Positions 13,672-33,216 of a stretch of 64,000 nt of DNA are shown here, in pieces. How positions within the stretch are numbered: position 1 is the stretch's first letter; the number at the start of each line of letters is the position of its first letter. The stretch is from positions 1-64,000 of the IMG/VR virus record IMGVR_UViG_3300032282_001282, one strand, 5' to 3'. Below the pieces are notes generated by a model. It worked only from the letters and a program-made list of their open reading frames with translations, was not told where the DNA came from and searched no databases. Source of the DNA: a virus. A program made the position numbers and the translations under genes.

Positions 13672-13679
13672 AAAAATAT

Positions 13680-14534: not shown

Positions 14535-14540
14535 CCTTGT

Positions 14541-14580: not shown

Positions 14581-14597
14581 CCATATGATAAAGAAAA

Positions 14598-14783: not shown

Positions 14784-14814
14784 TTAACTACCTCCGTGTT
14801 ATTATTATATATTA

Positions 14815-15318: not shown

Positions 15319-15363
15319 TTCTAGCTCCTTTGTTGAACAACATTCTTATTGTTATTATAATAT

Positions 15364-15621
15364 TTATACGGCTAGGGCTATTGTTATTAACCCGTTTATT
15401 GCTACGTTTAATTTTTCCTTAAATGCAAGCTGACTCATGTCTTCTAGGATTGCTAACTGACTTTGTGCGTCTTTTAAGATTTCTGCTACTTCTGCATTTG
15501 ACATTTGTCCAACTTTAGCCTGCTCCACAATCATATTAATATCGTGTGCAAACTGTGCGAATGTTGGATCATTGCTATTAGCAATTTCTGCCAGGCTTTG
15601 TTGTATGTTGTCTAAATTCAT
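15364..15621 (-). CDS. hypothetical protein
   Basis: ORF in lysis operon. Confidence 0.65.
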   Translation of the reverse strand: MNLDNIQQSLAEIANSNDPTFAQFAHDINMIVEQAKVGQMSNAEVAEILKDAQSQLAILEDMSQLAFKEKLNVAINGLITIALAV

Positions 15622-16022
15622 CTTGGTCTTTGTCCGATCACGTGTTGTATTGTTTGAGCAGAGTGCTCAATGCTTTCAAACTTCAATTTACAAAATGTAG
15701 GGCTTACAGCATCGCCTTTGTTGTAGCGTTCTTTTAGTCCCTGTGCTATTTTGTTTAGCTCTTTACTGGCGTTAATTCCGTTGCTGTTACGTGGGATTTG
15801 TTCGCTGTAATTTTGAAACAAACTGGTCTTATAACTTATACTACCTGCGTTGGCCTTGCTTTTAACAGCGTCATCGCATTGTGTTTTAAACTCGCCTGCA
15901 TCGGTACGCACTTCTGTAATAATACGATATTCATTGGGATCAAACCCGGTCATCATATAAGCATCATACAGAGCACAACCGTTTAATGCTAACACTACTA
16001 CTGCTAGTAATATTTTTTTCAT
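15618..16022 (-). CDS. lipoprotein
   Basis: Lipobox LNGC. Confidence 0.7.
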   Translation of the reverse strand: MKKILLAVVVLALNGCALYDAYMMTGFDPNEYRIITEVRTDAGEFKTQCDDAVKSKANAGSISYKTSLFQNYSEQIPRNSNGINASKELNKIAQGLKERYNKGDAVSPTFCKLKFESIEHSAQTIQHVIGQRPR

Positions 16023-16745: not shown

Positions 16746-17369
16746 TTAAACGCCAAATACGTGTAGTGCGTGTTGATAATGTTTCTTACGATCATCAAGA
16801 CCCAATGTACCACCGTTGATACGTTTGGTCATTGTTAGGATATCACCGTTGTCTGCGTATTGGTTTAGATTGTTGGCTTCCCAGAACCAGCAAGCCGATT
16901 GTACACAGCCTTCAAAAGTCTGCATAAATTCTGTGATTTCTTCTAGAGGTGTATCGATACTTTCAGCAAACTTGCTGTAGTTTGATTTACCAGTTAACTG
17001 AATAAGTCCACGTCCGCAGTATTTCCAACCATCGCCCGACTCTTCTGGACCATTGCCCATACGGTTAGCGTAGGCACGATTAGCAATAGCTTCTGGCTTG
17101 TGTGCATAGTCATTTGCGTTTCCAGCATTGAAATACTTAGGCCATACACGGCATAGACTTTCTGCCTTGTAGTTTAAGTTTTCTTGAATAAAATTAAAGC
17201 CACCGGACTCGTGAGCACACTGAGCCAAGAAAGCCGCCACACGCTGTGGTGTATCAATTTCATAGTCGGGAAGAATTTTGCAAAGTGCTTCATACCAATG
17301 TTCTACATGGGTATTTTGCGGAATTATTTGTTGTAGTTGGTCTTGCGTAAAATTAAACTTGAAATCCAT
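16746..17369 (-). CDS. glycoside hydrolase family 19 endolysin
   Basis: AAFLAQCAHESGGF, GRGLIQLTGKSNY and TKRINGG motifs. Confidence 0.9.
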   Translation of the reverse strand: MDFKFNFTQDQLQQIIPQNTHVEHWYEALCKILPDYEIDTPQRVAAFLAQCAHESGGFNFIQENLNYKAESLCRVWPKYFNAGNANDYAHKPEAIANRAYANRMGNGPEESGDGWKYCGRGLIQLTGKSNYSKFAESIDTPLEEITEFMQTFEGCVQSACWFWEANNLNQYADNGDILTMTKRINGGTLGLDDRKKHYQHALHVFGV

Positions 17370-17384
17370 TTTGATTGCTCCTTA

Positions 17385-17933
17385 TTATCGAATTATGCCG
17401 GCTAGGTTCCTTAGACTTTCTGTGTAATCATTTGTAGGGGCCTTTGTATCAACAGGCAAACCCGCGGCTGTTTTTATTTGATCAATAGCTTCTTGACCAT
17501 ATGCTTGTTCGTATTCATCTGGGTTTGTTGGGATTAGTGATTCTAATGCTTCTAAACTTAGATTAGTTTCTTTATGGCTCTTGTAATAACGCACACGCCA
17601 ATCTTCTATTTTTTGATCGGTAACGTTCATTAGATCTTCCATAAGGTCCATGATATTTGTTGGAGCTTCTTCATTGCGATCTAGTTCAACAAATACAATG
17701 TAGCTACCGTCTTCCATTTCGCCTGAGCTTAGGTCTGCGTCAAGGATCCAGTCATAACCTTTTTCAACAAAGTTTACTAAATCTGTTGCAGGTTCTTTAC
17801 TATCAACTTTGAAACTTAGTACAACAACATCAGCGTCGTCACCAAGTTTGCTTTTAAATTCATCAATGTGTAACTCGGGATGAATTAGTCGTGCTAGATC
17901 ACCTTGTTCAAGGCCTTCAAATAAATTAGGCAT
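17385..17933 (-). CDS. conserved phage hypothetical protein
   Basis: Acidic ORF; start at MPNLFE overlaps the upstream stop. Confidence 0.65.
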   Translation of the reverse strand: MPNLFEGLEQGDLARLIHPELHIDEFKSKLGDDADVVVLSFKVDSKEPATDLVNFVEKGYDWILDADLSSGEMEDGSYIVFVELDRNEEAPTNIMDLMEDLMNVTDQKIEDWRVRYYKSHKETNLSLEALESLIPTNPDEYEQAYGQEAIDQIKTAAGLPVDTKAPTNDYTESLRNLAGIIR

Positions 17934-18486
17934 TTGTCGGCTCCTGTTGTGCATCTTGTTGCTCTAGGTCTTGATTAATTAGACCTTGTTGGTTTTGTGC
18001 TTCATTGTCAGCACCTGTTTCATAGGCTTGATCAATGTCTTCCATGTCAACGGTACCGCCTTCTAATTCCAACGCACCCTGTTCAATGTCAGCCATCAAT
18101 TTTTTAGGCATAGTAATTTCAACTAGCCAAATTGGGCTTTTAATCATCTTAGGAACTTTTGTGCCAGGTTGAAAATCGTTTGGAGTTTTTACCTTTATTG
18201 GATGTTCAAAGAAGTCACGTTTAAAGTTAACGTCGCAGTCATATTCGCTTAAACGTGCGGCACCTTTGGGATCGGGCATTTTTTTGTAAGGCCACATAAA
18301 AGTACATTTTACAAAATACTTTTCGTAGACGGGACCTTCAACTAGTTCACCTTGTTTCCAGTGTGCAAAAGCATACAGGTCAAGTTCATCTAAGACACGT
18401 TCAAAATCCAGCAAGGTATTAACTGCTGAATCTGTCATGAATATGTCTTTAGTATTCTTTAATAAGTCTCTTATATTAGCTGCCAT
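17926..18486 (-). CDS. conserved phage hypothetical protein
   Basis: 186 aa ORF with late promoter at 18495-18500. Confidence 0.7.
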   Translation of the reverse strand: MAANIRDLLKNTKDIFMTDSAVNTLLDFERVLDELDLYAFAHWKQGELVEGPVYEKYFVKCTFMWPYKKMPDPKGAARLSEYDCDVNFKRDFFEHPIKVKTPNDFQPGTKVPKMIKSPIWLVEITMPKKLMADIEQGALELEGGTVDMEDIDQAYETGADNEAQNQQGLINQDLEQQDAQQEPTNA

Positions 18487-18497
18487 AGTAAAAGTAT

Positions 18498-19760
18498 TTA
18501 TCTCTTACTTGGCTGTACGACCTTTAGCTTTCGATCCTTAACTATGCGATAATCGGTGTTGGATTTTGTAATATAATCGCGGTTTAGCAACGCCGGTGTT
18601 GCTTGGTATTTGGTAGTTCCAAAGTAATAATTAGGCGTAAAGTTAACTTTAAGGCCCGTAGGACGATCAAGTTCGTAGATAAGAAGGTCAGGACTGATAT
18701 TGTTTGCTAGGTGCTGTAAACCCGATTCCCATGCACTATATAGGTTAGTGCCTTCTAAATTTTTGTAAAACCAATGGTCCATTTCATTAAAGAAACTGTT
18801 ACTTGGCTTGCTAGTTTGCCAAGTTTCTAAATCATAATCTGGGTATATAATGCTCTTGGCAACGTGTTCGTATGCCGTACGTTCTTTGCTTAAATTACCC
18901 GACCAATTGACCATAAACTGTAAGTGTTGATTCTGCGGTAACTCAAACCAATTCTTAATCATGTGTACTTGTTTAACAACTAACTCGGGTAAATCAGGAG
19001 TCCAGTAAAATAATTCTGTAGTTATGTTTGTGTAGTCTCCAACAATGGGACTAGGATGATTACACATAACATCATTAAAATAAAAATACCAGTTGCTGTC
19101 AATGATAGTCATCCTGGGTTTATCAATTCCGTATAGCACACAGATCTTTTTACCAGTGTCGGCTAAGTCCCTGTGTTCTTTTGAATTTAAGTTATTGTGC
19201 TTATCACCGTGTCCGGGCTGGAACCAGTCACGAGTTGTGAATATCCAAGACTCATCTCGAGTTGTTTCTTGTTCAAACATAAACTCGCTGTAGTCATGGA
19301 ATGTTGTTTTAGTCTTTGGATAGTTAGTGCGTATCCAATCAAATAAAGGTTTAGCCGCAAACTCAGCTTCACCTAAGGTATTATTTGCGTTTGTAGTAAA
19401 TGCATCATATACAGCATCTTTGGCCGCTGTCTTGGGATAACGAAACACAACTTCATCTAAGTGTATACCGTTGAGTAAGAAACTAAAGATAGCAGTAGTA
19501 CTGTCACCACCGCCACTGGCTTCTATACGTATCCAATCGTACTTTTCACGTAATTGTACAGCCCTTAGTCTATACAGCTCACGCAAGTCTGTTTCTGGTT
19601 CTATTGACCAGTCACTTCGTGCAAAAACCAACTCGTTAAAATGCCAAGTTGGTTTCTGTCTTGTTTTTGAAGCATACAAGTAAGCCTGAGGCTTTGAATA
19701 AAAAACCTCAGACCCTACCTTGTAATATCCTAACTTAGGATTTTGTTCTATACCATGCAT
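18498..19760 (-). CDS. PP-loop (adenine nucleotide alpha-hydrolase) ATP pyrophosphatase-like protein, copy 1
   Basis: SGGGDS, HLDEVV, GIDKP and ELFYWTPDLPEL motifs. Confidence 0.7.
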   Translation of the reverse strand: MHGIEQNPKLGYYKVGSEVFYSKPQAYLYASKTRQKPTWHFNELVFARSDWSIEPETDLRELYRLRAVQLREKYDWIRIEASGGGDSTTAIFSFLLNGIHLDEVVFRYPKTAAKDAVYDAFTTNANNTLGEAEFAAKPLFDWIRTNYPKTKTTFHDYSEFMFEQETTRDESWIFTTRDWFQPGHGDKHNNLNSKEHRDLADTGKKICVLYGIDKPRMTIIDSNWYFYFNDVMCNHPSPIVGDYTNITTELFYWTPDLPELVVKQVHMIKNWFELPQNQHLQFMVNWSGNLSKERTAYEHVAKSIIYPDYDLETWQTSKPSNSFFNEMDHWFYKNLEGTNLYSAWESGLQHLANNISPDLLIYELDRPTGLKVNFTPNYYFGTTKYQATPALLNRDYITKSNTDYRIVKDRKLKVVQPSKR

Positions 19761-20668
19761 TACTGGTCTAGTTTAACACCAACTGTTAGTTTAGTCCAGT
19801 ATTCGTTTTGTTCATCAAACCAAGACTTTAGTTGCTTTTCAGGAACAGTGAACGCCTGGCAATAATCTAATGCGTAGGCATCGTGTACAGATTTTGCATT
19901 TTCAACTTTGAGTAAAATCTCGCGGATTTCTTTAGCCTTAGCTTCAGGGAACGAACTAGGAACCATAAAGTTATATGGTGTATTCATTTTAGCCAATGAT
20001 GCCGGGAAGCCTTGACTGCTCAAGTTAGGAAACTTACCAACTGGCTTAGGACCTGTAGTACCTAGGATATTTAAACGAACTTTATTATCTTCGCCAGTCC
20101 AACGTTCCATGTCGCCTACAAAACCAACAACAAAGTCAACCTGTCCGCCTACGCTACCAATAATAGCTTCAGTGGTACTTTTAAACGGAATGATAGTTGA
20201 ATCGGGGAATTTCTTTTGGAACTGTAGTGCAACTAAATGACTAACAACACCAAGACCACTGGTACCAATAGTTAAGTGTTTGTCTTTAGGAACATCACTC
20301 CATGTGCGATATTTAGGACTTGCAATAGCAAATGGTACGCTACATTGTGTCCAGATAGTTCTAAAGTCATTTACGTTCCAGCTTTCTTTAGGATAGAAGT
20401 TTGGACGTAACCAAAACGCACCAGATGTCATAAAAATGGTGTTAGGGTTATTTTTTACGTGATTTACTGCTACTGCTTGACCGCCACCGGGATAAGCATC
20501 TACTAAGAATTCATATTTCTTTTGTATAGCGTTTGCTTCTCTTGCTAGGTTGCGGGTGTAGTTAAATGAATTGTCAGCGGCGCTGAATCCATAAACGATT
20601 GTAACTTTATCTTGTGCTACGGCTGAAAAAGCCAGAGCCGCAAGTAGTACTGCTAAAATTTTCTTCAC
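19760..20668 (-). CDS. tctC: Bug/TctC tripartite tricarboxylate transporter substrate-binding protein
   Basis: Signal peptide; PGGG..AVN, GTSGLG..SHL and PFKS...A...VGGQVD motifs. Confidence 0.75.
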   Translation of the reverse strand: MKKILAVLLAALAFSAVAQDKVTIVYGFSAADNSFNYTRNLAREANAIQKKYEFLVDAYPGGGQAVAVNHVKNNPNTIFMTSGAFWLRPNFYPKESWNVNDFRTIWTQCSVPFAIASPKYRTWSDVPKDKHLTIGTSGLGVVSHLVALQFQKKFPDSTIIPFKSTTEAIIGSVGGQVDFVVGFVGDMERWTGEDNKVRLNILGTTGPKPVGKFPNLSSQGFPASLAKMNTPYNFMVPSSFPEAKAKEIREILLKVENAKSVHDAYALDYCQAFTVPEKQLKSWFDEQNEYWTKLTVGVKLDQ

Positions 20669-20691
20669 GAGAGATCTCCAATAAGTTTATA

Positions 20692-20721
20692 AGTTTACGA
20701 TATTACTCGTATGTTTGTCAA
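20692..20721 (-). promoter_or_regulatory. sigma70-like promoter TTGACA-N18-TAAACT
   Basis: Perfect -35 box upstream of tctC. Confidence 0.45.
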
Positions 20722-20850
20722 ATGTTTTATTTGGCTAGTAGAGAAATCTACTTACGGGAATCGGCGTTCTAGGCATAACATGCTAGTAAAAGAGTTTCGC
20801 TACTCTAGGCGTCAATGTGTAGTCCGACGTCGGAGGATCCGGCGTTGCTA
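20722..20850 (-). ncRNA. candidate late small RNA with four hairpins and repeated ACGCC motifs
   Basis: Directly downstream of TATAAATA (20855-20862); palindrome TCCGACGTCGGA; stems AGAGT/ACTCT, CTAGCAT/ATGCCTAG and GTAGA/TCTAC. Confidence 0.45.
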
Positions 20851-20867
20851 AATTTATTTATACTAGA

Positions 20868-22094
20868 TTAAAATCTGTCGGCAATTTCTACGCTGTAACG
20901 ACGATTGGGATTAGTATACTCTGCAGGACCAATTTTGTAAAATGGAGTTAAGAATCCAACAAAGCCTACTGCACGTTTTAATTCCCAATTAAAATACTTT
21001 GGGTCTACGTTGCGTTCAACAAATTCGATGCCAGCTCGCCAGCTTTGGTACAATTTGTGATTTTCAAATTGACTATAGAACCAATAATCCATTTCACTGT
21101 AGAAGTTAGTAGCAGGCTTACCGACTTGGAAAGTCATTTGATCATAGTCGGGGTATACCAAGGGTTTAATCATTGCTTCATAGGCTGTACGCTGTGCATT
21201 ACTATGATTAGGCCAGCGAGCTAAAAATTGTAAATGACTGTTTGCTGGTTGATTAAACCAGTTGCGTATCACGTGTGCTTGTTTTACACTTAGCTCGGGT
21301 AAATCAGGAGTCCAAAAGAAATACTCGTTAGTAATATTAGTATACTCACCCATGTCGGGGTTGGCGTAGTTAGCTTGGAAGTCGATAAAATACAAATACC
21401 ATTCGCCATCACGTATACACATCTTGGGTTTATCTATGCCGTAGAGTACGCAAATACTTTTTCCAGCGTCGGCTAAGATTCTGTGATTAATTGTTTGGTA
21501 ATTGGGAAATTTAGTAACGTGCCCTGGTTGTAAAAAGTCCTTGGCACTATATACCCAAGACTCATCACGGCCATCATTGGCCAGCATATCAGCAGAGTAA
21601 TCGTGTACTGTTATTTTAATATTAGGGTAGTGTGTCTTGAGCCAATTAAACAGTGGGCGAGTAGCGTACTCATATTCGCTTAGGTGATTTTCTGCGTGAA
21701 AGTTATTTTGTGTAATTGGAATCTTGCCTTCACCGGCTCTAGGATAACGAAACACAATTTCATCTAGGTGTATATCATTTAATAAAAAATTAAATAATGC
21801 CTGTGTGCTATCACTGCCACCACTGCACTCTAATCTAATATAATCGTACTTGTCTCGTAACTGTTGAGCACGAATACGATACAGTTCTTTCAAGCCAATT
21901 TCAGGTTCGTGTTCCCAGTCCTGGGCACCGTAGATTTCATTGTTAAAATTCCAATGCGGAAACTCGCCAGTCTTGGTTGCTTCAATTAAGGCCTGTACCT
22001 TGCTAAAGAAAACTTTATCGCCGACTGTGTAGTAACCTAACTTAGGATTGTTTTCTAAGTTAACATCATAAAACTTTGTTATAAATTTATTCAT
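20868..22094 (-). CDS. PP-loop ATP pyrophosphatase-like protein, copy 2
   Basis: SGGSDS, HLDEIV, GIDKP and EYFFWTPDLPEL motifs; clear paralog of 18498-19760. Confidence 0.7.
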   Translation of the reverse strand: MNKFITKFYDVNLENNPKLGYYTVGDKVFFSKVQALIEATKTGEFPHWNFNNEIYGAQDWEHEPEIGLKELYRIRAQQLRDKYDYIRLECSGGSDSTQALFNFLLNDIHLDEIVFRYPRAGEGKIPITQNNFHAENHLSEYEYATRPLFNWLKTHYPNIKITVHDYSADMLANDGRDESWVYSAKDFLQPGHVTKFPNYQTINHRILADAGKSICVLYGIDKPKMCIRDGEWYLYFIDFQANYANPDMGEYTNITNEYFFWTPDLPELSVKQAHVIRNWFNQPANSHLQFLARWPNHSNAQRTAYEAMIKPLVYPDYDQMTFQVGKPATNFYSEMDYWFYSQFENHKLYQSWRAGIEFVERNVDPKYFNWELKRAVGFVGFLTPFYKIGPAEYTNPNRRYSVEIADRF

Positions 22095-22819
22095 TAGAGA
22101 TTAATAACTAAATCTGGACTTGCACGTTTAAGTAATTCTAGTGTTGTTTCTGTTACGTTGCCTGTTACCTGTAGCATAGGACGATCATGCCAACCCATGT
22201 TACAAGTAGCGTGTGGAATGTCTTGCCATTCCCAAGTAATACAATCACCTGCTCGCCATTGTGTCCACATAGCGTTACCTAACTGAAACACCTGTCCTAA
22301 TTGCCAGTCGGTTAACATAATAGCAAAGCGTCGATAGACTTCGGGGTTTTCGTCAAACTTAGTGACCTTAAAACTATTTTCACGTATAGGATTACCGGGA
22401 AAGTTATCTATGTGTGTAACTAACATCTGTCCTGTACGTTGATTGTGGAAGTTAACGTCAGCTCTAGTAAGACCTAATATGTCTCGGATCATACTAAACA
22501 CACCAACGTTTGTTACGTTTTTGCGATCGTAAATTTCCATTTTAGGATCAGCACCGGCACGTATTAAATCAGCTTCTTCGGCACTGGCGGTATACAACTC
22601 GCCTTTTACTTTGTGTTTGTTACGGTCAGCCCAACCTGTTGCTTTCGATGTTGGCGTACATTGTTGTATAGCCGCTGTAAAATCGTAATTAAAACGACAA
22701 ACGTATGTATAACTGTCCTTACCCGGCTCAGGAGGCCGAGTGGGATCAAAATGCCAACGACTTGTAGCCTTTGTGCCTTCCCAACGGCTACCGTTCCAAT
22801 CTAAATATTTTTCTGTCAT
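22094..22819 (-). CDS. 2OG-Fe(II) oxygenase-like (DSBH fold) protein, copy 1
   Basis: HxD (HID)...PHAT.N...R..LQVTG triad pattern. Confidence 0.6.
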   Translation of the reverse strand: MTEKYLDWNGSRWEGTKATSRWHFDPTRPPEPGKDSYTYVCRFNYDFTAAIQQCTPTSKATGWADRNKHKVKGELYTASAEEADLIRAGADPKMEIYDRKNVTNVGVFSMIRDILGLTRADVNFHNQRTGQMLVTHIDNFPGNPIRENSFKVTKFDENPEVYRRFAIMLTDWQLGQVFQLGNAMWTQWRAGDCITWEWQDIPHATCNMGWHDRPMLQVTGNVTETTLELLKRASPDLVINL

Positions 22820-23779
22820 TTATTTTGTGGAGAGCGATTTAATTAACGGATTAAAAGTTTTTCTTAAATCTTCAACATGACTTTTAATACCTTGTGGGTA
22901 TAACTCTTCTTCAACGTAGAATACAAAGTTTAAGTCAGCATATTCTTTATACTCTGGACTACGTATTGCATCTGCAAAAACACGTTGATACCAATCGACT
23001 ATGTCCTTGGGTGCATTCGGTGGCAACAACAAACTCCATCCGCCATAGATATTAATGTTTCCTACTGAATCTCTTAGTAGTGGGACATTTGGTAACTGTG
23101 GCAACTTTTTATTACCAGTTAAGCCGATGAATTTAATTTTGCCTGCTTCAGCCAACGGCCTTGCAACAGCACTAGGTAATACGCCAAACTCAATACCGGC
23201 ATCACTGGCAACACTGGTTACAACCTGCGCCGGTCCTTGAAATTGAATATACTGTACCTGTTGATTTCCATTGGCTTTAAGCATCATGTATTCGTAGACC
23301 ATACGATGTGCTCCGCTACCAACTCCAACGTTAATAGGATTTTGTGTAGTCTGTAGTCTCTTTACAAATTCAGCCGGAGTGTTTGTTCGGCTGTCGGCTT
23401 TTGCAACCAAGGCCAGTGGACTCTTGCCAATGGTCATTATGTCGGTGAAACTATTGTAATTAAATTTTTTAACATCCGCTTGCCAAATATCGTTAGTAAC
23501 ATAGATACTCATTTGACTGGGAATTAAAATAGTATAACCGTCAGCTGGCGTAGTTACAAAACTGTTGAGAGCCACTACTCCATCTGCGCCAACTTTGTTT
23601 TCAAATATAAATTTAACATCAGGGTTGCGTTTAGAAATAATGTTTGCAATAGCTCTGAATGTAAGTTCATTACCTGTGCCTGGGCCATAACCTATCACTA
23701 CGTTAATTGGTTTAGTGGGTTCCCAAGCAAATGCGGCCAATGGAAATAGCAATAATGCTAATAGAAGTTTTTTTATCAT
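22820..23779 (-). CDS. tctC: Bug/TctC substrate-binding protein
   Basis: Signal peptide; YGPGTG, ENKVGADG and PADGYT motifs. Confidence 0.85.
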   Translation of the reverse strand: MIKKLLLALLLFPLAAFAWEPTKPINVVIGYGPGTGNELTFRAIANIISKRNPDVKFIFENKVGADGVVALNSFVTTPADGYTILIPSQMSIYVTNDIWQADVKKFNYNSFTDIMTIGKSPLALVAKADSRTNTPAEFVKRLQTTQNPINVGVGSGAHRMVYEYMMLKANGNQQVQYIQFQGPAQVVTSVASDAGIEFGVLPSAVARPLAEAGKIKFIGLTGNKKLPQLPNVPLLRDSVGNINIYGGWSLLLPPNAPKDIVDWYQRVFADAIRSPEYKEYADLNFVFYVEEELYPQGIKSHVEDLRKTFNPLIKSLSTK

Positions 23780-23825
23780 TTTGATTGAAATTCTGATGTG
23801 CCTAATACTTATACTAGTTTCTACA

Positions 23826-23854
23826 AGTATAAACTGTTATTTTATCAAAGTCAA
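23826..23854 (-). promoter_or_regulatory. sigma70 promoter TTGACT-N17-TATACT
   Basis: Upstream of the tctC-oxygenase-PP-loop operon. Confidence 0.6.
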
Positions 23855-23909
23855 GCCATGACCTAAATAATTTAGTAGACACCATGTCTACTATTTCAAG
23901 GAGGCAAAT

Positions 23910-24677
23910 TTGTCCAAACGACAACGAGGTAATAGAGCAGAGGCTCTAATTGTAGATAATCACAGTAGTTTTAGTAGTAATAATACAGTAAGGTTGGACT
24001 TGTATCAGAAACCTAGTAAGTTTCAACAACGCCCAATTACGCTGATCCCAAAAAGTCTTGCCCAAGAGACCTATATTGACCTATTAACCGATCCCGAAAA
24101 ACTTATAGTGTTTGCCACAGGCCCAGCGGGCACAGGCAAAACAATGCTGGCTGTACTGGCCGCACTCAAAGCATTTAGGGATGGCAAAATAGAACGTATA
24201 GTCGTAACAAGACCTGCTGTGGGAGTCGATGATGAAGAACATGGGTTTTTACCCGGAGACTTAAATGAAAAGATGGCTCCGTGGACTAGACCTATATTTG
24301 ACATAATCGGCGAATACTACCGCCAAACAGAAATCGTACGTATGCTAGATGAAAATCAAATTGAGATCAGTCCCCTAGCCTATATGAGAGGTAGAACATT
24401 TAAAAAATCGTGGATTATTGCAGACGAAATGCAAAACGCGACACCAAGTCAGATGAAAATGTTACTCACACGATTAGGGGAAGGCAGTAAAATGATCGTT
24501 ACAGGTGATACACGCCAAGCAGATAGACAGGAGGACGACAACGGATTGTTGGATTTCCAGCGTTTAGTAGAGGATTATCAACGCTGTAAATATGTGTCTG
24601 GAATCGAGTTCGATCACAGAGATATTCAACGACACCCTGCTGTGCTTGAAATTCTTAAAATTTACAAGGAGGTCTAG
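23910..24677 (+). CDS. phoH: PhoH-like ATPase
   Basis: GPAGTGKT, GFLPGDL.EK, YMRGRT, DEMQN and TGD..Q.D motifs; TTG start with AGGAGG. Confidence 0.95.
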   Translation: MSKRQRGNRAEALIVDNHSSFSSNNTVRLDLYQKPSKFQQRPITLIPKSLAQETYIDLLTDPEKLIVFATGPAGTGKTMLAVLAALKAFRDGKIERIVVTRPAVGVDDEEHGFLPGDLNEKMAPWTRPIFDIIGEYYRQTEIVRMLDENQIEISPLAYMRGRTFKKSWIIADEMQNATPSQMKMLLTRLGEGSKMIVTGDTRQADRQEDDNGLLDFQRLVEDYQRCKYVSGIEFDHRDIQRHPAVLEILKIYKEV

Positions 24678-24698
24678 TTTATACAAATTAGATAGAGT

Positions 24699-24722
24699 AA
24701 ACCCGGGATCTTCCCGGGTTTT
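24699..24722 (+). terminator. rho-independent terminator
   Basis: AAACCCGGGA-TCT-TCCCGGGTTTT. Confidence 0.8.
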
Positions 24723-24840
24723 GTTATACCCCCCACTAAATACTATAAATATTTCAAGTATGCCTTGCTGTGCCCCCCAAATTCACAAACATTATTTAAT
24801 TAAGGCATAAATATGTTTATATCACTAGGAGATTTACAAT

Positions 24841-25878
24841 ATGTCAGACCGCAGAAAAATTCGTTGGTTAATTGCCCACTTTCCGGTACACCTATTTCAA
24901 AGAACTGCCGAAGCATTTGGCCGCGAACTAGAAACTTTGTGCCCAGGACAATTTGAACTCGAAATCCACACTTTAGATACTTTTGCAGAAAAGTACAGCG
25001 ACAAGTATAGCAATATCAATAAGCGTATGCCACGCTTGCCAGGCTTAGAAGATAAGCAAGGAATTGCAAAGAAGCATGCCGCTACTGACGTTAAAGAAAT
25101 GTACGAAAAATGGGATACATTCTTTGATGGTTTGCGTGAAGGCGATTTCGAAATGAGCCAAACACAAGTATTTACAGTTGCTGAAAAATTACATAATAAA
25201 GATTTTGCCGCACTAGATTTACCATTCTTGTTTGACAATCACGACCACGTTAGCCGTGTATTAGATGGCGAAATTGGTGACGAGCTATGCAAAGGCCTAG
25301 AAAATGAAAAGATTCGTGGTTTAGCATTTACTTACTCCGGTGGTTATCGCATTATCGGTAGCACAAATGGTCTAAGCAACCTTAGTGATTTAGCACACAC
25401 AGATTTGATCGTTGCTAACCGTCCAAGCGAAGTATTGTTTGGCAATGGTTTTGGAACTCCAATCCTACGTCGCTCTGAAGTTGCTAACGCTAGTTTAGCT
25501 GAAGGTGTAAATGACGGCATGGCTGTTGAAACTACATACATTCGCTTTACTGGTAAGCACGTATTAAAAACAAATCACAGTATTTTCATGACAACTATCT
25601 TAACTGGTACTAAGTTCTTAGATAGTTTAACAGAAGACCAACGTAATGCATTTATGGTTGCCGCAAAGCGTGTAGCTAAGATCGAACGTGAGTGGTCTGT
25701 TGCAGATGCTGAAAAATACGAACGCGATGCTGTAACCAATGGTGTTACAATCATTGACTTGTCTGAAGAAGACCAGGCGTTGTTACAGAAGCGAGCAAAA
25801 CTAAGCTATCGCCATGTTGAAGACATGGGTATCGATGTAAACTTAGTAAAACGTATTATTGAACGTCGTAAAGATTAA
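24841..25878 (+). CDS. dctP: DctP-like TRAP substrate-binding protein lacking a signal peptide
   Basis: LDLPFLF..H.H...VLDG.IG, YSGGYR and TNH motifs; SD AGGAG directly upstream. Confidence 0.75.
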   Translation: MSDRRKIRWLIAHFPVHLFQRTAEAFGRELETLCPGQFELEIHTLDTFAEKYSDKYSNINKRMPRLPGLEDKQGIAKKHAATDVKEMYEKWDTFFDGLREGDFEMSQTQVFTVAEKLHNKDFAALDLPFLFDNHDHVSRVLDGEIGDELCKGLENEKIRGLAFTYSGGYRIIGSTNGLSNLSDLAHTDLIVANRPSEVLFGNGFGTPILRRSEVANASLAEGVNDGMAVETTYIRFTGKHVLKTNHSIFMTTILTGTKFLDSLTEDQRNAFMVAAKRVAKIEREWSVADAEKYERDAVTNGVTIIDLSEEDQALLQKRAKLSYRHVEDMGIDVNLVKRIIERRKD

Positions 25879-27002
25879 ATATCACCCACGTAATAACGTG
25901 GGCTGTATTTAGGAATAGTGCCCCGGCCGTTGAGAAACTCCGGGGCTATATTTTTGGCTAGATAATCTGCACCTTGTGCCCAAACATCACGTGCTCGACT
26001 AAACTGTTTTGTATTATAGAACCAAGTATCAAACTCATTGTCCCAATCGCTCTGCGGCTTGTCGACCTGGAACCACGTATTGTCCCATGTTGTTTGATAC
26101 ACAACTCCACGTAAGATCTTTTCCTTGGCAGTTTTAAATATACTGTTAGTACTAGACCAAATACGCTGATAGGTAGGATTGACTTGTAAGAATCGTAAGA
26201 AGGTATGACATTGTTTAGCAAGTATATCGCAAGCTTCAGGCGACCAGTAAAAGAATTCTACTGTGCTGTTATCGTATTCACCAAAGTTTGGATTGATGTT
26301 AATGTTATTAGCTGGCTTGTCTATAAACTGTAGATAGAGTTTGCCGTCAACAATAGTACACGGCGGCTTATCAATGCCTAGTATAATACCAATGTTTTGT
26401 CGGCTGTCAATACGTGAACGTACTTCTTTAACGTGGTAATAATTGTAACGTTGATTACCGCCAGGATTAATAACATCACGACTGTCTAACACCCAAGACT
26501 CGTCACGTGCTTTTAAGTAATAGGTTAAGATGTCTTTGCTAGAATCGTATACTGTAACCTTAGTATTAGGCATATTATCTGCAATCCATTGCATCTTATC
26601 CTTGACTGTTAGTTCATACTCGGCGTTTTGATTCCACGTTTCTGTAATTGCGGGATCTAGTACTAGGAAGTCAGTTTTACTTGCTTCAAAGATCCAGTTA
26701 GTAATAATTTCATCAATGTGCAGACCTTGACGATAGAATGACATTAGGATATTATGACTGTCTGCACCACCTGAGTAACTTAGGATAATGTAATCATATT
26801 GTTCACGTAGTTCACGTGCCCTACGATCATATAGTGCATCTAATGACAGTTCTGGTTCATGACTAAAATCGTACGCATCAAATACATCATTGTTAAACAC
26901 CCATTCAACAGGCAGTTTATTTTGTGTAGCGTGTAGCAAACAGCGGGCTTTGCTGGCAAATGCTTGATTGCCAGCAATATAATATCCTAAGGATTTATTC
27001 AT
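25875..27002 (-). CDS. PP-loop ATP pyrophosphatase-like protein, copy 3
   Basis: YSGGADSHN, HIDEII, GIDKP and EFFYWSP motifs. Confidence 0.7.
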   Translation of the reverse strand: MNKSLGYYIAGNQAFASKARCLLHATQNKLPVEWVFNNDVFDAYDFSHEPELSLDALYDRRARELREQYDYIILSYSGGADSHNILMSFYRQGLHIDEIITNWIFEASKTDFLVLDPAITETWNQNAEYELTVKDKMQWIADNMPNTKVTVYDSSKDILTYYLKARDESWVLDSRDVINPGGNQRYNYYHVKEVRSRIDSRQNIGIILGIDKPPCTIVDGKLYLQFIDKPANNININPNFGEYDNSTVEFFYWSPEACDILAKQCHTFLRFLQVNPTYQRIWSSTNSIFKTAKEKILRGVVYQTTWDNTWFQVDKPQSDWDNEFDTWFYNTKQFSRARDVWAQGADYLAKNIAPEFLNGRGTIPKYSPRYYVGDI

Positions 27003-27907
27003 TATTGTAGTGGCTTAACTTTTGCGGCTTGCTCGCGCCAGAACTTAACCTGTTGGTTAAACCAGCTAACTGTTTGTGCCCAGGTAAAATCTGCTGGTGT
27101 TGAAAACTCTCTAGCATAACCAGCTTGTACATCCGGTGCCCGGTTAGCTACACGTAGTAGCTCATATAGCTCTCGAACTTTTTCTGCAGGCATCTCAGTA
27201 CTAGCAACAATAACAGTATTGGTACTTACATTTTCAAATCCTTTGATACCTTGGCTTGCTAAAGTTGGGTGGCCTTTGATGCTACGTGTTCCTGTTAGGC
27301 CTAGCACACTTGTCAAATTTGCGTCAACTGCGCCTTCAATTTCACTTAACCAGTTCCAACCAGTATCAATATGTCGACCTAATACATCTTTATTGGCATC
27401 TACTAAACTAGTGTAATTAACAATACGAACACCGCTATAATGTTCGCCTAAAATACTTCCCATTAAATTACTGTGGCTACCATAACCGCTGATTGATGTC
27501 GTAAACCCATAGTCTTTCTTTATATCTTTGACGCTTTTGTATTGTGTACTAAAGAGTGCAACTGGTGCGCCAAGGGTTTGAACTAATACTGGTTGAAAAC
27601 TTTCTGCGGCATATCCTGTTTCTTTATCAAAGTTTGGCCGAATAAAGAACGTGCTTGTGCCACCGAGTAATGTATTCTTAGGATTATCCAATATATACTT
27701 TGCGGCTACTGCACCACCTGCACCAGGTTTAGTTTCAAAAACAAACTCGTACTTGGTTTGATTCTTATTAAGATCTGCTACCATAGCACGATAAAAGTTT
27801 GCTTGGTTAGCGGCAGGACTAAAACCCCAGACTAAGGTAATTCTTTCTGCGGCCATTGCCGTGACTGAAGCGGCCATAAGTGCGGCCAACACTATTTTTT
27901 TAAACAT
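27002..27907 (-). CDS. tctC: Bug/TctC substrate-binding protein
   Basis: Signal peptide; ETKPGAGG and PTLASQG motifs. Confidence 0.75.
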   Translation of the reverse strand: MFKKIVLAALMAASVTAMAAERITLVWGFSPAANQANFYRAMVADLNKNQTKYEFVFETKPGAGGAVAAKYILDNPKNTLLGGTSTFFIRPNFDKETGYAAESFQPVLVQTLGAPVALFSTQYKSVKDIKKDYGFTTSISGYGSHSNLMGSILGEHYSGVRIVNYTSLVDANKDVLGRHIDTGWNWLSEIEGAVDANLTSVLGLTGTRSIKGHPTLASQGIKGFENVSTNTVIVASTEMPAEKVRELYELLRVANRAPDVQAGYAREFSTPADFTWAQTVSWFNQQVKFWREQAAKVKPLQ

Positions 27908-27916
27908 TTAATTTTC

Positions 27917-28651
27917 CTATTTGAAATTTCTTACATTGAACTTGGGATCAGTACGATCTGTTCTAAGTCCAGTTACTTGCAAAGTCATGCGGCTATGCTC
28001 ACTTGCATTGGCTGTGGCGTGTGGAACATTTGGCCAATCATGCATATGAACTTCTCCGGCTCTCCATTGTTGATATACAGAGTTACCATATATCATAAAC
28101 TGTCCGGGCTTCCAATCTTCTAACATAACAGTAGCACGGACAATATCTAAAGGATCGTAACCATAGTCCTGGTTATCAGGATTACCATTACCATCCCGGT
28201 AAAACAATCTTTGTATTGGGTCTATGTGTGCTGTAAACATTTGCCCAGTTTTTTGTACATGACAACGAGAGTGTGTCACACTAAAATTAAAACTGTCAAT
28301 AACTTTTTGTAATTCAGGAAACTCTGTAAAGTCATCAAAGACATCAGTTAATTCGATTTGATCGAGATTGCCACCGCCCCGAGCAATATCAGACTTGCGT
28401 TTGTCGATGCCCAGTACAATTTGCTTGGAACCACCTGTATAGGTAATGTTGTTCCAAGTGGCAGAAAAACTGCGATTGCGTATAACAGGAAGGTAGTCGT
28501 TCCACGTTACTGGAACACTACCTAATACCATAAATGTTGAGTTGGGTCTGTCTTGTTTAAAATTATCAAAGTGGTAAGAGCTTTTTGTCTTTGACCACTC
28601 CCATACGCTATCGTAATCTGCTAGAGTTTTTGGTTTATTTGAGTTTTCCAT
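27917..28651 (-). CDS. 2OG-Fe(II) oxygenase-like protein, copy 2
   Basis: HIDP...PHATAN...R..LQVTG; paralog of 22094-22819. Confidence 0.6.
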   Translation of the reverse strand: MENSNKPKTLADYDSVWEWSKTKSSYHFDNFKQDRPNSTFMVLGSVPVTWNDYLPVIRNRSFSATWNNITYTGGSKQIVLGIDKRKSDIARGGGNLDQIELTDVFDDFTEFPELQKVIDSFNFSVTHSRCHVQKTGQMFTAHIDPIQRLFYRDGNGNPDNQDYGYDPLDIVRATVMLEDWKPGQFMIYGNSVYQQWRAGEVHMHDWPNVPHATANASEHSRMTLQVTGLRTDRTDPKFNVRNFK

Positions 28652-29597
28652 TTGTTAATTGATCAAGCAGTCCTGAGCTAAAATAAGTGTTAAACTTATT
28701 ATACAGTCCTGCTGTTGCAGATACAAATTTTTCTTTTTCATTTGCAGTCATGCGTACAGTAGGAATGCCTTGCTCAGCGGCACGTTTTTGAATTACAACA
28801 TTATCGGCTAGGCTATGATCACGTTCGATTTGAGCGGCTCTCATAGCGGCACGAGCAAAAATGCCCTGTACCTTTTCACCTAAGGCTAACCAAGTTTGTT
28901 GGTTGATAATTAAACTGGTTAGGAACAAGCTGTGTTCGTTATCATTAATATGTGTAGTTTGCTTATCGTGGCCTAGTACAAAGAAACGAGTGTAAGTAGT
29001 TTCACCACCATCAACACGACCAGTTTCTAAACTAGCTTCTAAGTCTTCGATAAACATTGGAACTGGAGTAGAGCCAACGGCCTTGAAAGTTTCAACTGCT
29101 ACTGGGTTATTACCACAGCCGATATTCATACTAGCAAAATCGCCAATGGATTCGATTGCACGATTACTTGGAACAATACGGAAACCACCTGAGTAAGTAA
29201 ATGCTAGTCCACGGATATTGCTATTATCAGCAACTTTGGCCAACATGTGTTGCCCAACTGGACCATCAATAACTTGACGTGCTTGCTCATCGCTGTTGAA
29301 TAAGAATGGCATTGTTAGTGCATACATATCTTTGTCAACACGACCTAAAGTACTTGCATAAACTGTAGCCATGTCAATAATACCATTATCAACTAAACCG
29401 ATAACACGCTCACGGTCTGTAGTGTGTTCTGTTAAATTATCTTTAGCAATAGCGTTCCATTCTTTAAGATCTAGAACATTAATTGTATATTGACCGTTGG
29501 TTTCTGTATAAACTTCTTCGGCAAAGCTCTTAGCGGCTTCAATAAAAACATGGTAAGGCTCATGGGCCAATACCCAGTTTAGGGTGTACTTTTGCAT
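28635..29597 (-). CDS. dctP: DctP-like TRAP substrate-binding protein lacking a signal peptide
   Basis: MPFLF, YSGGFR, G.TPVPM...L..G.VDG.E motifs; SD AGGAG. Confidence 0.8.
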   Translation of the reverse strand: MQKYTLNWVLAHEPYHVFIEAAKSFAEEVYTETNGQYTINVLDLKEWNAIAKDNLTEHTTDRERVIGLVDNGIIDMATVYASTLGRVDKDMYALTMPFLFNSDEQARQVIDGPVGQHMLAKVADNSNIRGLAFTYSGGFRIVPSNRAIESIGDFASMNIGCGNNPVAVETFKAVGSTPVPMFIEDLEASLETGRVDGGETTYTRFFVLGHDKQTTHINDNEHSLFLTSLIINQQTWLALGEKVQGIFARAAMRAAQIERDHSLADNVVIQKRAAEQGIPTVRMTANEKEKFVSATAGLYNKFNTYFSSGLLDQLTNGKLK

Positions 29598-29632
29598 TTT
29601 GGGGTCTCCTGTTGGACTGCTACTTGATATAA

Positions 29633-30229
29633 TTATTTATCTACAGGACCGGCAATAATACTATAAACTTCTTCCCAGTTTTTAACTGTACGCACACCAT
29701 CGTGATAGTGATTCATATTATGCCCGTGTTCCATTAACAGAGCATTTAATCCCAAATTTGCACCCAATTCAGCGTTTTGCGGTTTATCTTCAATCCACCA
29801 GCAACCTGTGTCGCGGTATGGGTATAGTGCTTCATCTTTGTCTGCGCCTGTGGCCAAACAAACAACACGTTGGAATACCGTATCTCCAAATAGTTTACTT
29901 AGATTCATTTCCCTAAGTCGTTGTGCATTTGGGTCTGTGCTTAGGCTAGTAATACAATGGAAAACATACCCATGTTCTTCGTGTAGCTTTTTAACATAGT
30001 GTATGGCATCACGTAACGGAGGCAAGAAACCAATTGCGGCACTTTCGTTAAACATCTTAATTAGACGTTTGCCTTGGTCCTTACTAATACCGTACCTTGT
30101 GCCAATATCATAGTTAAATTCACCACCGGGTAGTTTTTCAAATCCGTGTGTTTCTAACCAAATATTAAATGCGTACTCCCAATTGAGTAACACACCATCT
30201 GCATCTACTAATATAACTGATTCTTTCAT
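29633..30229 (-). CDS. HAD-superfamily phosphatase / 5'-nucleotidase-like (T4 gp30.2-like)
   Basis: LVDADGVL, ITSLS and WIEDK motifs. Confidence 0.8.
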   Translation of the reverse strand: MKESVILVDADGVLLNWEYAFNIWLETHGFEKLPGGEFNYDIGTRYGISKDQGKRLIKMFNESAAIGFLPPLRDAIHYVKKLHEEHGYVFHCITSLSTDPNAQRLREMNLSKLFGDTVFQRVVCLATGADKDEALYPYRDTGCWWIEDKPQNAELGANLGLNALLMEHGHNMNHYHDGVRTVKNWEEVYSIIAGPVDK

Positions 30230-30681
30230 TCTGCTCCTTTTGTTAGTTCACATACTAACATAAAATGATCGTATGCTTGTCTAACACTTTCATGTTTCAA
30301 TAGTTTGTCTGCTTCTGCTTGCATAGCGTGTACACCAGCTTCGGCACAATCACGGATGCTGAGTCCTTGTAGTGTACACAGCTCGTCACCAAAGGCTTCA
30401 GCAAGAGCATGCCAAGCTCGTTTCTGCTCTGGGGTAACAGTCGCCTGTTTTGGGCGTAGTTCACTGGCCTTTTGTATAGCCTTACATATAGCATCTTCTG
30501 CTATACGGCTAGCGGCTATCATTGGTGCGTAAGCAGGATCGACATTATACCTACGACTAGAACCACCTGGGTATACACTTAGCAAGTGATGGCCTTTGGG
30601 TAATGCGTCCATTAGTTCAGTATCGTACTCATATACTGGAACATATCGACGGCCTTCTTTTTTGTAATACAACTGCTTCAT
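30226..30681 (-). CDS. hypothetical protein
   Basis: ORF in operon. Confidence 0.7.
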   Translation of the reverse strand: MKQLYYKKEGRRYVPVYEYDTELMDALPKGHHLLSVYPGGSSRRYNVDPAYAPMIAASRIAEDAICKAIQKASELRPKQATVTPEQKRAWHALAEAFGDELCTLQGLSIRDCAEAGVHAMQAEADKLLKHESVRQAYDHFMLVCELTKGAE

Positions 30682-31349
30682 AGTACTTTTACATAATTTA
30701 GATTTGTAACACGAGCATTACCGCGGTACTTGTCTTTGTTATGTGCTTTAACTTTACCTTGGATACGGCCTGCTTCAATAATTTTCTTATTGTCCTTAGC
30801 CCAATAAAAAATCAAATCCCCATTGTCGTCATTGCCGTATACTGCATAACAATCCATACTAGGGACATATCGGCTTTCAATAATTGAAAAATTTACAACA
30901 ATTTTTTCGCCAATTTTGCCAACAAAATTACTTTGGTGTTCGTAACGAGCACTTACTTCGCGGATCTGATCTTTTTTCTTTTGATCGTGGGCAAGTTTTG
31001 GAGCCCATGCAAGTAGCCCAATATCTCGTATGTTGAGATTTTCGTTGCCGAGTATTTCTGCAATTTTATGAAGGAATTGATTTGAGCTACCCTTGGTCAA
31101 GGTTTGCATTATATGTGTCTGTTGCAGGAAAGACACAATGTCTTCGGCTTCAGCACGATGCGAATCTTTAATTTCAAAATTTGATGTTTGATTTAGCACA
31201 CCAAGGATAATTTCTCTGTTGGGTGCTAGTTTTTCTGGGCCGTTGGCATCACGAACAACTTTTTGTTGGTTGTGTTCAAAGGCGGCAACTGCTACTGCAA
31301 GAGCCTGAATAGTAGAAAAATGTTTTTGCTTATTCACAGGCAACTCCAT
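30678..31349 (-). CDS. hypothetical protein with possible C-terminal OB fold
   Basis: FVGKIGEK...GKVKAH...T.LNYVK pattern. Confidence 0.6.
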   Translation of the reverse strand: MELPVNKQKHFSTIQALAVAVAAFEHNQQKVVRDANGPEKLAPNREIILGVLNQTSNFEIKDSHRAEAEDIVSFLQQTHIMQTLTKGSSNQFLHKIAEILGNENLNIRDIGLLAWAPKLAHDQKKKDQIREVSARYEHQSNFVGKIGEKIVVNFSIIESRYVPSMDCYAVYGNDDNGDLIFYWAKDNKKIIEAGRIQGKVKAHNKDKYRGNARVTNLNYVKVL

Positions 31350-31956: not shown

Positions 31957-32302
31957 CTTTCTTTTCTTCTTCTTTAGGAATAAATTGTTCTAGGTAGGCC
32001 AAATCTAATTCAGCCATTACTGTGGCTACTTCTTTTGGATAACCCTCTAAGAAGTATTTAAAAAGACTATCAAAGTCTTTTTGTTCAGTGTCGTAGCGAT
32101 TTTGTACAACAGTTTTTTTATTAAGATTTAGTACAACTCCAGCGTACTGTTGATCTTTACCGGACAGGCCTTTGGTAAACTCAACACGTTCGTCGAATTG
32201 AATATTCTTTGGATCTTTATTCCAGCCAGGTTGTTCTGTGCGAACTCCGCGGCGTGGTTTCATTACATAAAATGCTACAAGGTGTAGGTCTTTGATTTTC
32301 AT
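31934..32302 (-). CDS. hypothetical protein
   Basis: ORF in operon. Confidence 0.65.
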   Translation of the reverse strand: MKIKDLHLVAFYVMKPRRGVRTEQPGWNKDPKNIQFDERVEFTKGLSGKDQQYAGVVLNLNKKTVVQNRYDTEQKDFDSLFKYFLEGYPKEVATVMAELDLAYLEQFIPKEEEKKDETVQAE

Positions 32303-33216
32303 AGTTGTGTAAGCTCGATTAAAGTTGCTGATAAGTTAATTTCAGGATCAGCACACATTGGGTGATTAACCAATCCTTTGCGGATTGCCAAGATAGCTTG
32401 GTCTTGTTTTTCTGGATCCTTAGACCACAGTTCCAAATTGTCGTACATCCAACGGAATAACCCGTCCATATCTTCCATACTGGCTTGTGTACAAATTGCT
32501 TGTCGACCTTCTCTAATTTTTCCAGCCTTAAACAATTCTACAGCACCAAGACGCCAGTCTTTAACAGCACGATCATTTTCACCGGGCTTGTCTAGACGTC
32601 CTGTAGTTGAGTTTGCTTGTACAAGATTTAGACATTTACGCAGATCTGGATATGTTGCTTTGACATAGCTGTCAAGCGTATCCAAATCAAACTCAACATT
32701 TTCTGATACCAAGATAGTGGCAATACGAGCAGTAAATTCTGTCAAGTCTGTTTTATCGATATGGAAACCTTGACAACGACTGTGTAAAGCATCCATAATT
32801 TTATGTGGTTTGTTACAAGTTAAAATAAATCGAACTTGTGCCGCATACTGTTCTAATGCACCACGCAACAATGCTTGACTGTTCGGAGTCAAATAGTCTG
32901 CTTCGTCTAGCAAAACAATCTTTAAATGTCCAAACGGCATAGTACTAGCAAAACCCAGTACCTTGTCACGCATGTCATCAACTTTGGTTTCATTAGATGC
33001 ATTAATATGCAATACATCATAATCATCAATGCCCAACTCGTTGATAAGAACTTTGGCTAGCGTAGTTTTACCTGTGCCCGGACTACCGCTTAGTAGAATA
33101 TGTGGAATTGATTTTTCTTTTACCCAAGATTCAATTTGCTGTTTTTGTCCAGCGTCAGTGAACACATAATCTTGTATCGTTTTGGGACGATACTTTTCTG
33201 TCCAGAGTTCTTTCAT
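32299..33216 (-). CDS. clamp loader ATPase subunit (T4 gp44/RFC-like)
   Basis: WTEKYRP, GSPGTGKT, INAS, DEAD and SRC motifs. Confidence 0.93.
   Translation of the reverse strand: MKELWTEKYRPKTIQDYVFTDAGQKQQIESWVKEKSIPHILLSGSPGTGKTTLAKVLINELGIDDYDVLHINASNETKVDDMRDKVLGFASTMPFGHLKIVLLDEADYLTPNSQALLRGALEQYAAQVRFILTCNKPHKIMDALHSRCQGFHIDKTDLTEFTARIATILVSENVEFDLDTLDSYVKATYPDLRKCLNLVQANSTTGRLDKPGENDRAVKDWRLGAVELFKAGKIREGRQAICTQASMEDMDGLFRWMYDNLELWSKDPEKQDQAILAIRKGLVNHPMCADPEINLSATLIELTQL

Follow-up and report, generated by a model that had tools for sequence, protein, structure and literature searches.

The stretch of DNA analysed here, referred to below as the window, is the first 64 kb (64,000 nt) of the 86-kb IMG/VR virus record IMGVR_UViG_3300032282_001282. 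The record is 24% complete by the CheckV estimate, and the full genome would accordingly measure ~360 kb. Between positions 18498 and 29597 the window carries an island that encodes three PP-loop paralogs (PP1, PP2 and PP3), three TctC/Bug-like binding proteins (Tct1, Tct2 and Tct3), two oxygenases (Oxy2 and Oxy3) and two DctP-like proteins (DctPa and DctPb). On the minus strand, in coding order, the genes form the units DctPa-Oxy3-Tct3-PP3 (29597 to 25875), Tct2-Oxy2-PP2 (23779 to 20868) and Tct1-PP1 (20668 to 18498). PhoH and DctPb are encoded on the plus strand between the first two of these units, and a gap of 199 nt separates PP2 from Tct1. Coordinates given below refer to the minus strand unless another strand is named. 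At nearly all junctions the stop codon of one gene abuts or overlaps the start codon of the next, with overlaps of 1-17 nt. An earlier analysis of the same DNA from its letters alone (the sequence-only reading) had described three paralogs with an SGGxDS motif together with TctC, oxygenase and DctP open reading frames (ORFs). All eleven ORFs were confirmed, as was their tight packing, and the assignments made at that time (PP-loop adenylating enzyme, double-stranded beta-helix 2-oxoglutarate oxygenase, Bug and DctP) hold by structure matches and profiles.

The three PP-loop proteins are 420 aa (PP1, 18498-19760, with the PP-loop SGGGDS), 408 aa (PP2, 20868-22094) and 375 aa (PP3, 25875-27002) in length, and the start codons of PP1 and PP3 overlap the stop codons of Tct1 and Tct3, respectively. 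The paralogs are 50% and 36% identical to one another; the motifs SGGxDS, H-x-DE, GIDKP, FxW-P and KQxH are invariant in all three. SGGxDS, the Asp that follows it, GxDKP and KQ are conserved throughout the family, and SGG[GSA]DS is found without exception in the three paralogs as well as in 28-40 diverse members. None of the three proteins had a match in Pfam, PHROGs, NCBIfam or PADLOC, and no Pfam or NCBIfam domain was found in any of 40 sampled family members. A word-indexed search recovered 1,206 proteins of this family. When 1.84 billion cluster representatives were searched exhaustively with a profile, 1,977 matches were obtained at E <= 0.001, of which 1,138 reached E <= 1e-30. The family comprises about 2,000 clusters when clustered at 50% identity. 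Among the best matches listed, members are mostly 365-435 aa. They come almost exclusively from viral contigs, up to 374 kb long, and from metagenomes, and the ESM Atlas clusters nearest to the PP proteins are 99-100% viral.

The probable nature of this family was suggested by structure. An AlphaFold model of PP2 (pLDDT 82, pTM 0.84) matched best with Escherichia coli AsnB (1ct9; Z 11.2, root-mean-square deviation 5.0 over 289 residues, spanning model residues 3-380). The next matches were human ASNS (9b6c, Z 9.9), beta-lactam synthetase (1jgt, Z 8.8), TsnB9 (7ylz, Z 8.5) and carbapenam synthetase (1q15), and Foldseek retrieved 1q19 with the same model at an E-value of 2.4e-4. Single-domain PP-loop enzymes (CysD, LarE, TilS, NAD and GMP synthetases, QueC) matched the core of PP2 only, with Z <= 7.5. 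With the AsnB class (AsnB, ASNS, 1jgt, 1q15 and TsnB9) the PP proteins have in common the SGGxDS motif and the two-part synthetase fold over ~290 residues at Z 8-11.2, and the chemistry expected to be common to them is adenylation of a carboxylate followed by attack of an amine. The PP proteins differ from this class in that they have no match to PF00733, originate nearly exclusively from viruses and carry an N-terminal stub of roughly 60 residues in place of the N-terminal nucleophile (Ntn) glutaminase domain. That domain is missing, since the part ahead of the PP-loop is only ~60-80 residues long and has no N-terminal Cys. Fold and motifs suggest that the PP proteins form a new branch, associated with viruses, of the AsnB-fold amide or lactam synthetases that adenylate carboxylates with ATP. 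They are not known tRNA- or DNA-modifying enzymes, the outcome that would have told against the sequence-only reading.

Lasso cyclases are AsnB-fold enzymes that also lack an active glutaminase domain. By analogy, the PP enzymes might cyclise a small precursor peptide to a macrolactam of the ribosomally synthesized and post-translationally modified peptide type. Candidates for such a precursor exist in 23-28 relatives, in which a PP2-type gene is directly preceded by two short ORFs (95 and 122 aa) that are conserved and have no Pfam match (for instance at locus L053, positions 9277-9934). Neither of these ORFs is present in the window, no gene for a leader peptidase, a transglutaminase-like protein or an RRE was seen, the PP proteins are ~400 aa long, and a peptide pathway would leave the binding proteins unexplained. 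We consider this explanation extremely improbable.

Each PP-containing unit of the island includes a gene for a TctC/Bug-like protein. Tct1 (19760-20668, 302 aa, with a GTG start) scored 26.3 bits against PF03401, for which the cut-off is 27, Tct2 (22820-23779, 319 aa) scored 82 bits, and Tct3 (27002-27907, 301 aa) had no Pfam match. The trio are 17-29% identical to each other. Tct3 is tied to the TctC family solely by its 29% identity to Tct1, itself a borderline member. All three proteins have a Sec-type leader, and a hydrophobic Sec-type N-terminus was present in 73 of 76 TctC-like relatives. Tct2 aligned over its full length with Bug27 and BugD at E-values of ~5e-15, and the range for BugD (2f5x), Bug27 (2qpq) and TphC (8hka), the last of which binds terephthalate, was 4e-15 to 1e-11. 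Beyond the signal peptide, the island proteins resemble bacterial Bug proteins in their orphan status, as most Bug genes in Betaproteobacteria have no adjacent TctAB genes. They differ from them in being phage-encoded and translationally coupled to a cytoplasmic ligase, and in the strong divergence of Tct1 and Tct3. In GenBank phage records only one doubtful match to a phage-encoded TctC was obtained, and the matches to TctC and DctP there were of low identity and lay in unannotated or bacterial-looking records. In two relatives a secreted protein of 276 aa with no Pfam match (L053, 12635-13465; L022, 13654-14463) occupies the usual site of the TctC-like gene, preceded in L053 by a copy of the structured RNA described below; it may be a very divergent binding protein.

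The two DctP-like proteins share 29% identity (E 3e-38). DctPa (28635-29597, 320 aa) is encoded by the first gene of its unit, and the gene for DctPb (24841-25878, plus strand, 345 aa) converges on that for PP3. Both proteins match PF03480 or NF037995, with NF037995 scores of 139 bits for DctPa and 73 bits for DctPb. The sequence-only reading had counted DctP among the receptors. A secreted location could not be upheld, because neither a signal peptide nor a hydrophobic N-terminus was found in any of 45 full-length phage DctP-like proteins, both window copies included. The ORFs already begin at the first possible start codon past the upstream stop, and a conserved N-terminus, 'RWVLAHEP', is located where mature tripartite ATP-independent periplasmic (TRAP) binding proteins begin. 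Judging from these N-termini, the DctP-like proteins are probably cytoplasmic, and the predicted split between exported TctC-like and cytoplasmic DctP-like proteins is systematic. R140, which aligns with the ligand-carboxylate Arg of 4p47 (motif 'GFR'), is retained by 21 of 24 proteins, again including both copies in the window. The clade numbers ~1,000 proteins with lengths of 312-320 aa, and the viral share of its clusters is 81-100%. In comparison with TRAP DctP proteins (4p47, 4n8y, SiaP, TeaA), the phage proteins are alike in the PF03480/NF037995 match, the full-length alignment and the carboxylate Arg, and differ in the absence of a signal peptide, the 'RWVLAHEP' start, the absence of DctQM and the largely viral composition of the clade.

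Instead of one DctP-like gene, many relatives have two ORFs, each of ~160 aa, with an overlap of 4-17 nt (L006 12654-13632, L026 10525-11476 and L029 7961-9005, and also L038, L047, L054, L059, L060, L070, L074, L077, L082 and L083). Because the split is conserved across these loci, it reflects either a true two-piece protein or a programmed frameshift.

Oxy2 (22094-22819, 241 aa) and Oxy3 (27917-28651, 244 aa) are 29% identical (E 3e-23) and had no Pfam match. The residues H136-x-D138, H203 and R213, the Arg being 10 residues past the distal His, are invariant in 12 of 12 homologues, and a weak alignment to AtsK/TauD (E 0.1) extends across the distal His and Arg. In the structural model (pLDDT 74) all of the 50 best matches were 2-oxoglutarate (2OG) oxygenases with Z 8.5-11.5, headed by proline 3-hydroxylase (1e5r, Z 11.5), prolyl hydroxylases and AspH. 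By the facial triad, the Arg and the model, both proteins classify as double-stranded beta-helix 2OG/Fe(II) oxygenases.

We examined how far these genes stay together in other phages. For a first sample, 79 loci were fetched with the PP family, and the commonest families near PP genes were PP itself (75 loci, 120 copies), DctP-like proteins (53 loci) and TctC-like proteins (52 loci). Linkage was scored in the 52 loci with at least 3 kb of flanking sequence on both sides. A TctC-like and/or DctP-like gene lies within 4 kb of the PP gene in 48 of them, and the oxygenase gene is optional, being present in 9. A second sample consisted of PP subfamilies 30-35% identical to the first set, drawn by an alignment-based search; here linkage was found in 35 of 48 loci with flanks. 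Locus searches with the single remote proteins P0220 and P0253 gave no match. The linkage of PP-loop and binding-protein genes that the sequence-only reading expected in other phage genomes is therefore real. The fixed order it had proposed, TctC followed by PP, is not: with P, T and D denoting PP, TctC-like and DctP-like genes, 47 arrangements occur among 76 loci, all pairwise orders are represented (P-T 28, P-D 23, T-P 21, D-T 19, P-P 18 and T-D 15 adjacencies), and the commonest minimal islands are P, PD, PT and PDT. Many adjacent pairs in relatives also overlap at their stop and start codons. A linkage that has outlived so much reshuffling argues for a common function rather than inherited synteny. 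Joint duplication of TctC-PP pairs was considered and rejected, since all gene orders occur and PP1 is nearest to PP2 but Tct1 is nearest to Tct3; the congruence of the two trees that had been anticipated was not observed.

Islands in the remote sample include, next to PP, genes for proteins similar to fatty-acid desaturases, to QueC (a second PP-loop family) and to nitronate monooxygenases, and for radical S-adenosylmethionine (SAM) proteins (L094 7177-7992 and 12880-13797; L128 6135-7046; L133 4819-6327; L143 4487-5767).

The sequence-only reading had emphasized the lack of any transporter. For the window this is correct, and neither TctA nor DctM (PF06808) was found in the whole 86-kb record or in four relatives that are 97-100% complete (349-374 kb). 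The statement does not extend to all relatives. Genome G005, the closest relative of the Tct2-Oxy2-PP2 unit, has TctB and TctA (458 bits) ~12 kb from its island. In L053 the gene order is PP, TctA-like, RNA, secreted 276-aa protein, RNA, DctP-like and a major facilitator superfamily (MFS) permease (11179-15979), and in 9 loci a TctA-like gene adjoins a PP or DctP-like gene. Secondary transporters that depend on a binding protein work as importers. The permease-bearing relatives, together with this import-only character, would tie the island to uptake, presumably as a rule through a tripartite tricarboxylate transporter (TTT) permease of the host, and they point to TTT-permease import rather than a receptor-only system. 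Membrane transport genes were also noted in or near the islands of further relatives (L163, 9131-10447; L022, 12307-13644), and in G005 the TctB and TctA genes adjoin a tryptophan-halogenase-like gene (L090, G005:C1:108000-127000, 3100-7063).

That this phage and four complete relatives have no permease would also suit a different role, in which exported TctC-like decoys occupy or block TTT permeases or binding-protein-dependent sensors of the host. Competitors would thereby be starved, superinfecting phages kept out or signalling rewired, and the cytoplasmic proteins would be unrelated cargo. The sigma-70-like promoters of Tct1 and Tct2, which are consensus matches only, would fit the early expression that such a role calls for. 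Interference of this kind leaves unexplained the coupling to PP genes with its conserved adjacency, the leaderless DctP-like clade and the addition of TctA and TctB by some relatives, and we judge it very improbable.

A more substantial alternative is that the PP ligases and oxygenases build a small amide-linked molecule, such as a chelator, a signal or an antibiotic-like compound, from cellular acids. The molecule would leave the cell and then be recaptured or sensed by the exported TctC-like proteins. In the clavam and carbapenem pathways, beta-lactams are made by AsnB-fold enzymes paired with 2OG oxygenases, and PP2 matches two of the relevant synthetases, 1jgt and 1q15. The diversification of the paralogs is in keeping with such a scheme, and the desaturase-like, radical SAM, nitronate-monooxygenase-like, QueC-like and halogenase-like genes of remote islands keep it alive. 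On the other hand, no exporter was seen in the window and no scaffold-forming enzyme (nonribosomal peptide synthetase, polyketide synthase, crotonase or NRPS-independent siderophore synthetase), the permeases that are present are of the binding-protein-dependent import type, and the minimal islands P, PD, PT and PDT are too small for a biosynthetic pathway. Biosynthesis and recapture thus appears unlikely to us. Compared with the make-and-sense system that the sequence-only reading had put forward, which keeps some probability, import and conversion fits better, since binding-protein-dependent transporters import.

Phages are also known to use an AsnB-type ligase on a macromolecule. In Synechococcus phage S-B43 the asparagine-synthetase homologue CmoY ligates glycine to 5-carboxymethylcytosine in DNA, and ligases of the CmoY type are diverse in phages (PMC12783734). 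The PP family, with its predicted ligase activity, resembles CmoY as a phage-encoded, AsnB-type and ATP-dependent amide ligase; the main CmoY cluster has no working glutamine route, and both are highly diversified in uncultured phages (PMC12783734). With this precedent, the PP ligases could add an amine or acid to phage DNA, tRNA or protein, with the binding proteins supplying the donor, and radical SAM and methyltransferase genes do occur near some islands. The neighbourhoods differ, however. CmoY adjoins CmoA and CmoX (PMC12783734), whereas the tight and reshuffled linkage of the PP genes is with exported solute-binding proteins and permeases, not with DNA enzymes. In the record and its four near-complete relatives there was no match to PF00145 (C5-cytosine methyltransferase; 0/5) and none above the cut-off for CmoA (TIGR00740), so a CmoA/CmoX/CmoY pathway is not present in these five records. 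Furthermore, tblastn searches of 50,697 GenBank phage records with PP2, PP3 and one remote family member gave no match, and the window has no tRNA gene. Hypermodification of a macromolecule therefore seems quite improbable.

Dozens of loci have a conserved counterpart of the 199-nt gap that separates PP2 from Tct1. In 36 aligned loci the sequence ATAAATA is nearly invariant and is followed by an RNA element of ~116 nt with several hairpins. In the window this consists of a T4-late-promoter-like box, TATAAATA, at 20855-20862, directly 5' of a structured RNA at 20733-20848 that forms a multi-stem junction with three ACGCC motifs. RNAalifold predicted 18 base pairs, 13 of which show compensatory changes. 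In the alignment 97% of cells are paired, compared with 80.5% in shuffled alignments and at most 58% in slid controls, and both-side changes were counted in 120 cells versus 35 in shuffles; none of 500 shuffles reached the observed values. By eye, covariation also extends to another hairpin at the end of the element, GTAGA...TCTAC. With a covariance model we found 50 copies in 57 sources, one of them in the window (20705-20867), and all lie on the coding strand of the island. The gene that follows is DctP-like in 30 of the 50 copies (up to 36 if six are included whose longest ORF overlaps the RNA match) and TctC-like in 12. No match to Rfam was found at E <= 1 over positions 17000-31000.

We infer that the RNA is a riboswitch-like or protein-binding regulatory element of the binding-protein genes. 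Between the RNA and Tct1 lies a sigma-70-like promoter, TTGACA-N18-TAAACT (20692-20721), which is a consensus match only; its TTGACA recurs in several relatives, and Tct2 is likewise preceded by a match to the sigma-70 consensus. Owing to the position of the Tct1 promoter, the RNA in this window may act as a leader solely when transcription is late, or it may be a small RNA in its own right. The box TATAAATA is not enriched across the window (5 found versus 6.4 expected), and sigma-70-like and terminator-like matches in the window are at background level, so these promoters are assigned from position and conservation only.

Taken together, we propose that the island is a phage auxiliary system for the capture and conversion of small carboxylates, by import and ATP-dependent amidation, and put the probability of this at about one half. 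The exported TctC/Bug-like proteins would bind small carboxylates, either organic or amino acids, in the periplasm and hand them to a TTT permease, which for this phage would be the TctAB of the host and which some relatives would bring themselves. The leaderless DctP-like proteins would bind the same or related acids in the cytoplasm. The PP enzymes would adenylate the carboxyl group with ATP and join it to ammonia or another amine as an amide or lactam, a step that would also trap the imported acid, and the optional 2OG/Fe(II) oxygenases would hydroxylate the substrate or the product. The structured RNA would control expression of the binding-protein genes, as a riboswitch-like or protein-binding leader. 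Three diverged sets of PP and TctC suggest several ligands. As a matter of speculation, amino acids are candidates, because Asp and Glu are ligands of BugD and BugE, the best match of the ligase is AsnB, and the best matches of the oxygenase are amino-acid hydroxylases or prolyl and aspartyl hydroxylases.

Several observations weigh against this proposal. Homology to AsnB is undetectable by sequence profiles: the PP proteins have no match to the AsnB synthetase domain of PF00733 in Pfam, and PP profiles built from 3, 27 or 40 members matched no AsnB-class or other solved structure among PDB sequences. The proposed chemistry is consequently argued from fold and motifs. With neither TctA nor DctM in the record and its four relatives, import depends on a putative host permease. 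No precedent was found for the role of a cytoplasmic DctP-like protein, the PP and TctC paralog trees are not congruent, and the tailoring genes of remote islands (desaturase-like, radical SAM, nitronate-monooxygenase-like and halogenase-like), which are similar to those of natural-product pathways, suit biosynthesis equally as well as salvage.

A more specific version of capture and conversion links all components in one ligand-controlled pathway, in which exported TctC feeds the TTT permease, the cytoplasmic DctP holds the acid and hands it to the glutaminase-less ligase for amidation, and a riboswitch of a new class senses the same metabolite and thereby sets the expression of the binding proteins. 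We hold this version tentatively and would sooner doubt it than adopt it. If true, it would provide the first case of a TRAP binding protein that carries substrate to an enzyme in the cytoplasm, and viral auxiliary metabolism would gain a new class.

The general concept of capture by a phage-encoded binding protein has a precedent in PstS of cyanophages, a phage auxiliary gene for nutrient uptake. Like PstS, the TctC-like proteins would be phage-supplied periplasmic binding proteins that work with a membrane transporter of the host; the island differs in belonging to the TTT/TRAP rather than the ATP-binding cassette type, in its diversified copies, and in the conversion enzymes and structured RNA coupled to them. 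A search of the literature on phage TctC, DctP or TRAP binding proteins, on asparagine synthetase of jumbo phages and on this ligase family found nothing relevant. Three components are undescribed, namely the family of ligases, the clade of cytoplasmic DctP-like proteins and the motif in the RNA, although the parts belong to known superfamilies. If the proposed capture and conversion holds, large aquatic phages carry a modular and rapidly reshuffled system for import and conversion of small acids, going beyond single genes borrowed from the host. This would bear on how viruses redirect the flow of carbon and nitrogen in lakes and seas, and it could be a source of new biocatalysts for amide formation and add a class of regulatory RNA.

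The genes that flank and interrupt the island point to its source. These are a GH19 chitinase/lysozyme-like protein, a probable endolysin (16746-17369), PhoH (23910-24677, plus strand), which is inserted in the middle of the island on the opposite strand, an NT5C-like 5'-nucleotidase (29633-30229) and a gp44-type clamp-loader ATPase (32299-33216). From this set, the DNA appears to come from an uncultured giant (~360 kb) T4-like phage. In searches with the island proteins, PHROGs gave matches only for PhoH and, with one unnamed family, for DctPb, and PADLOC assigned none of ten island proteins to a defence system. Megablast of the region against GenBank phages gave no match. At the convergent junction of DctPb and PP3, where the two genes overlap by 4 nt, there is a terminator-like GC-rich hairpin (25884-25903, both strands). 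PhoH and the NT5C-like gene accompany the island in many relatives. Finally, a fourth and divergent pair of PP and TctC genes lies beyond the window in the same record at ~63242-65388 (locus L004); this PP protein is 27% identical to PP1 and is followed by a TctC-like gene whose product is 26% identical to Tct2.

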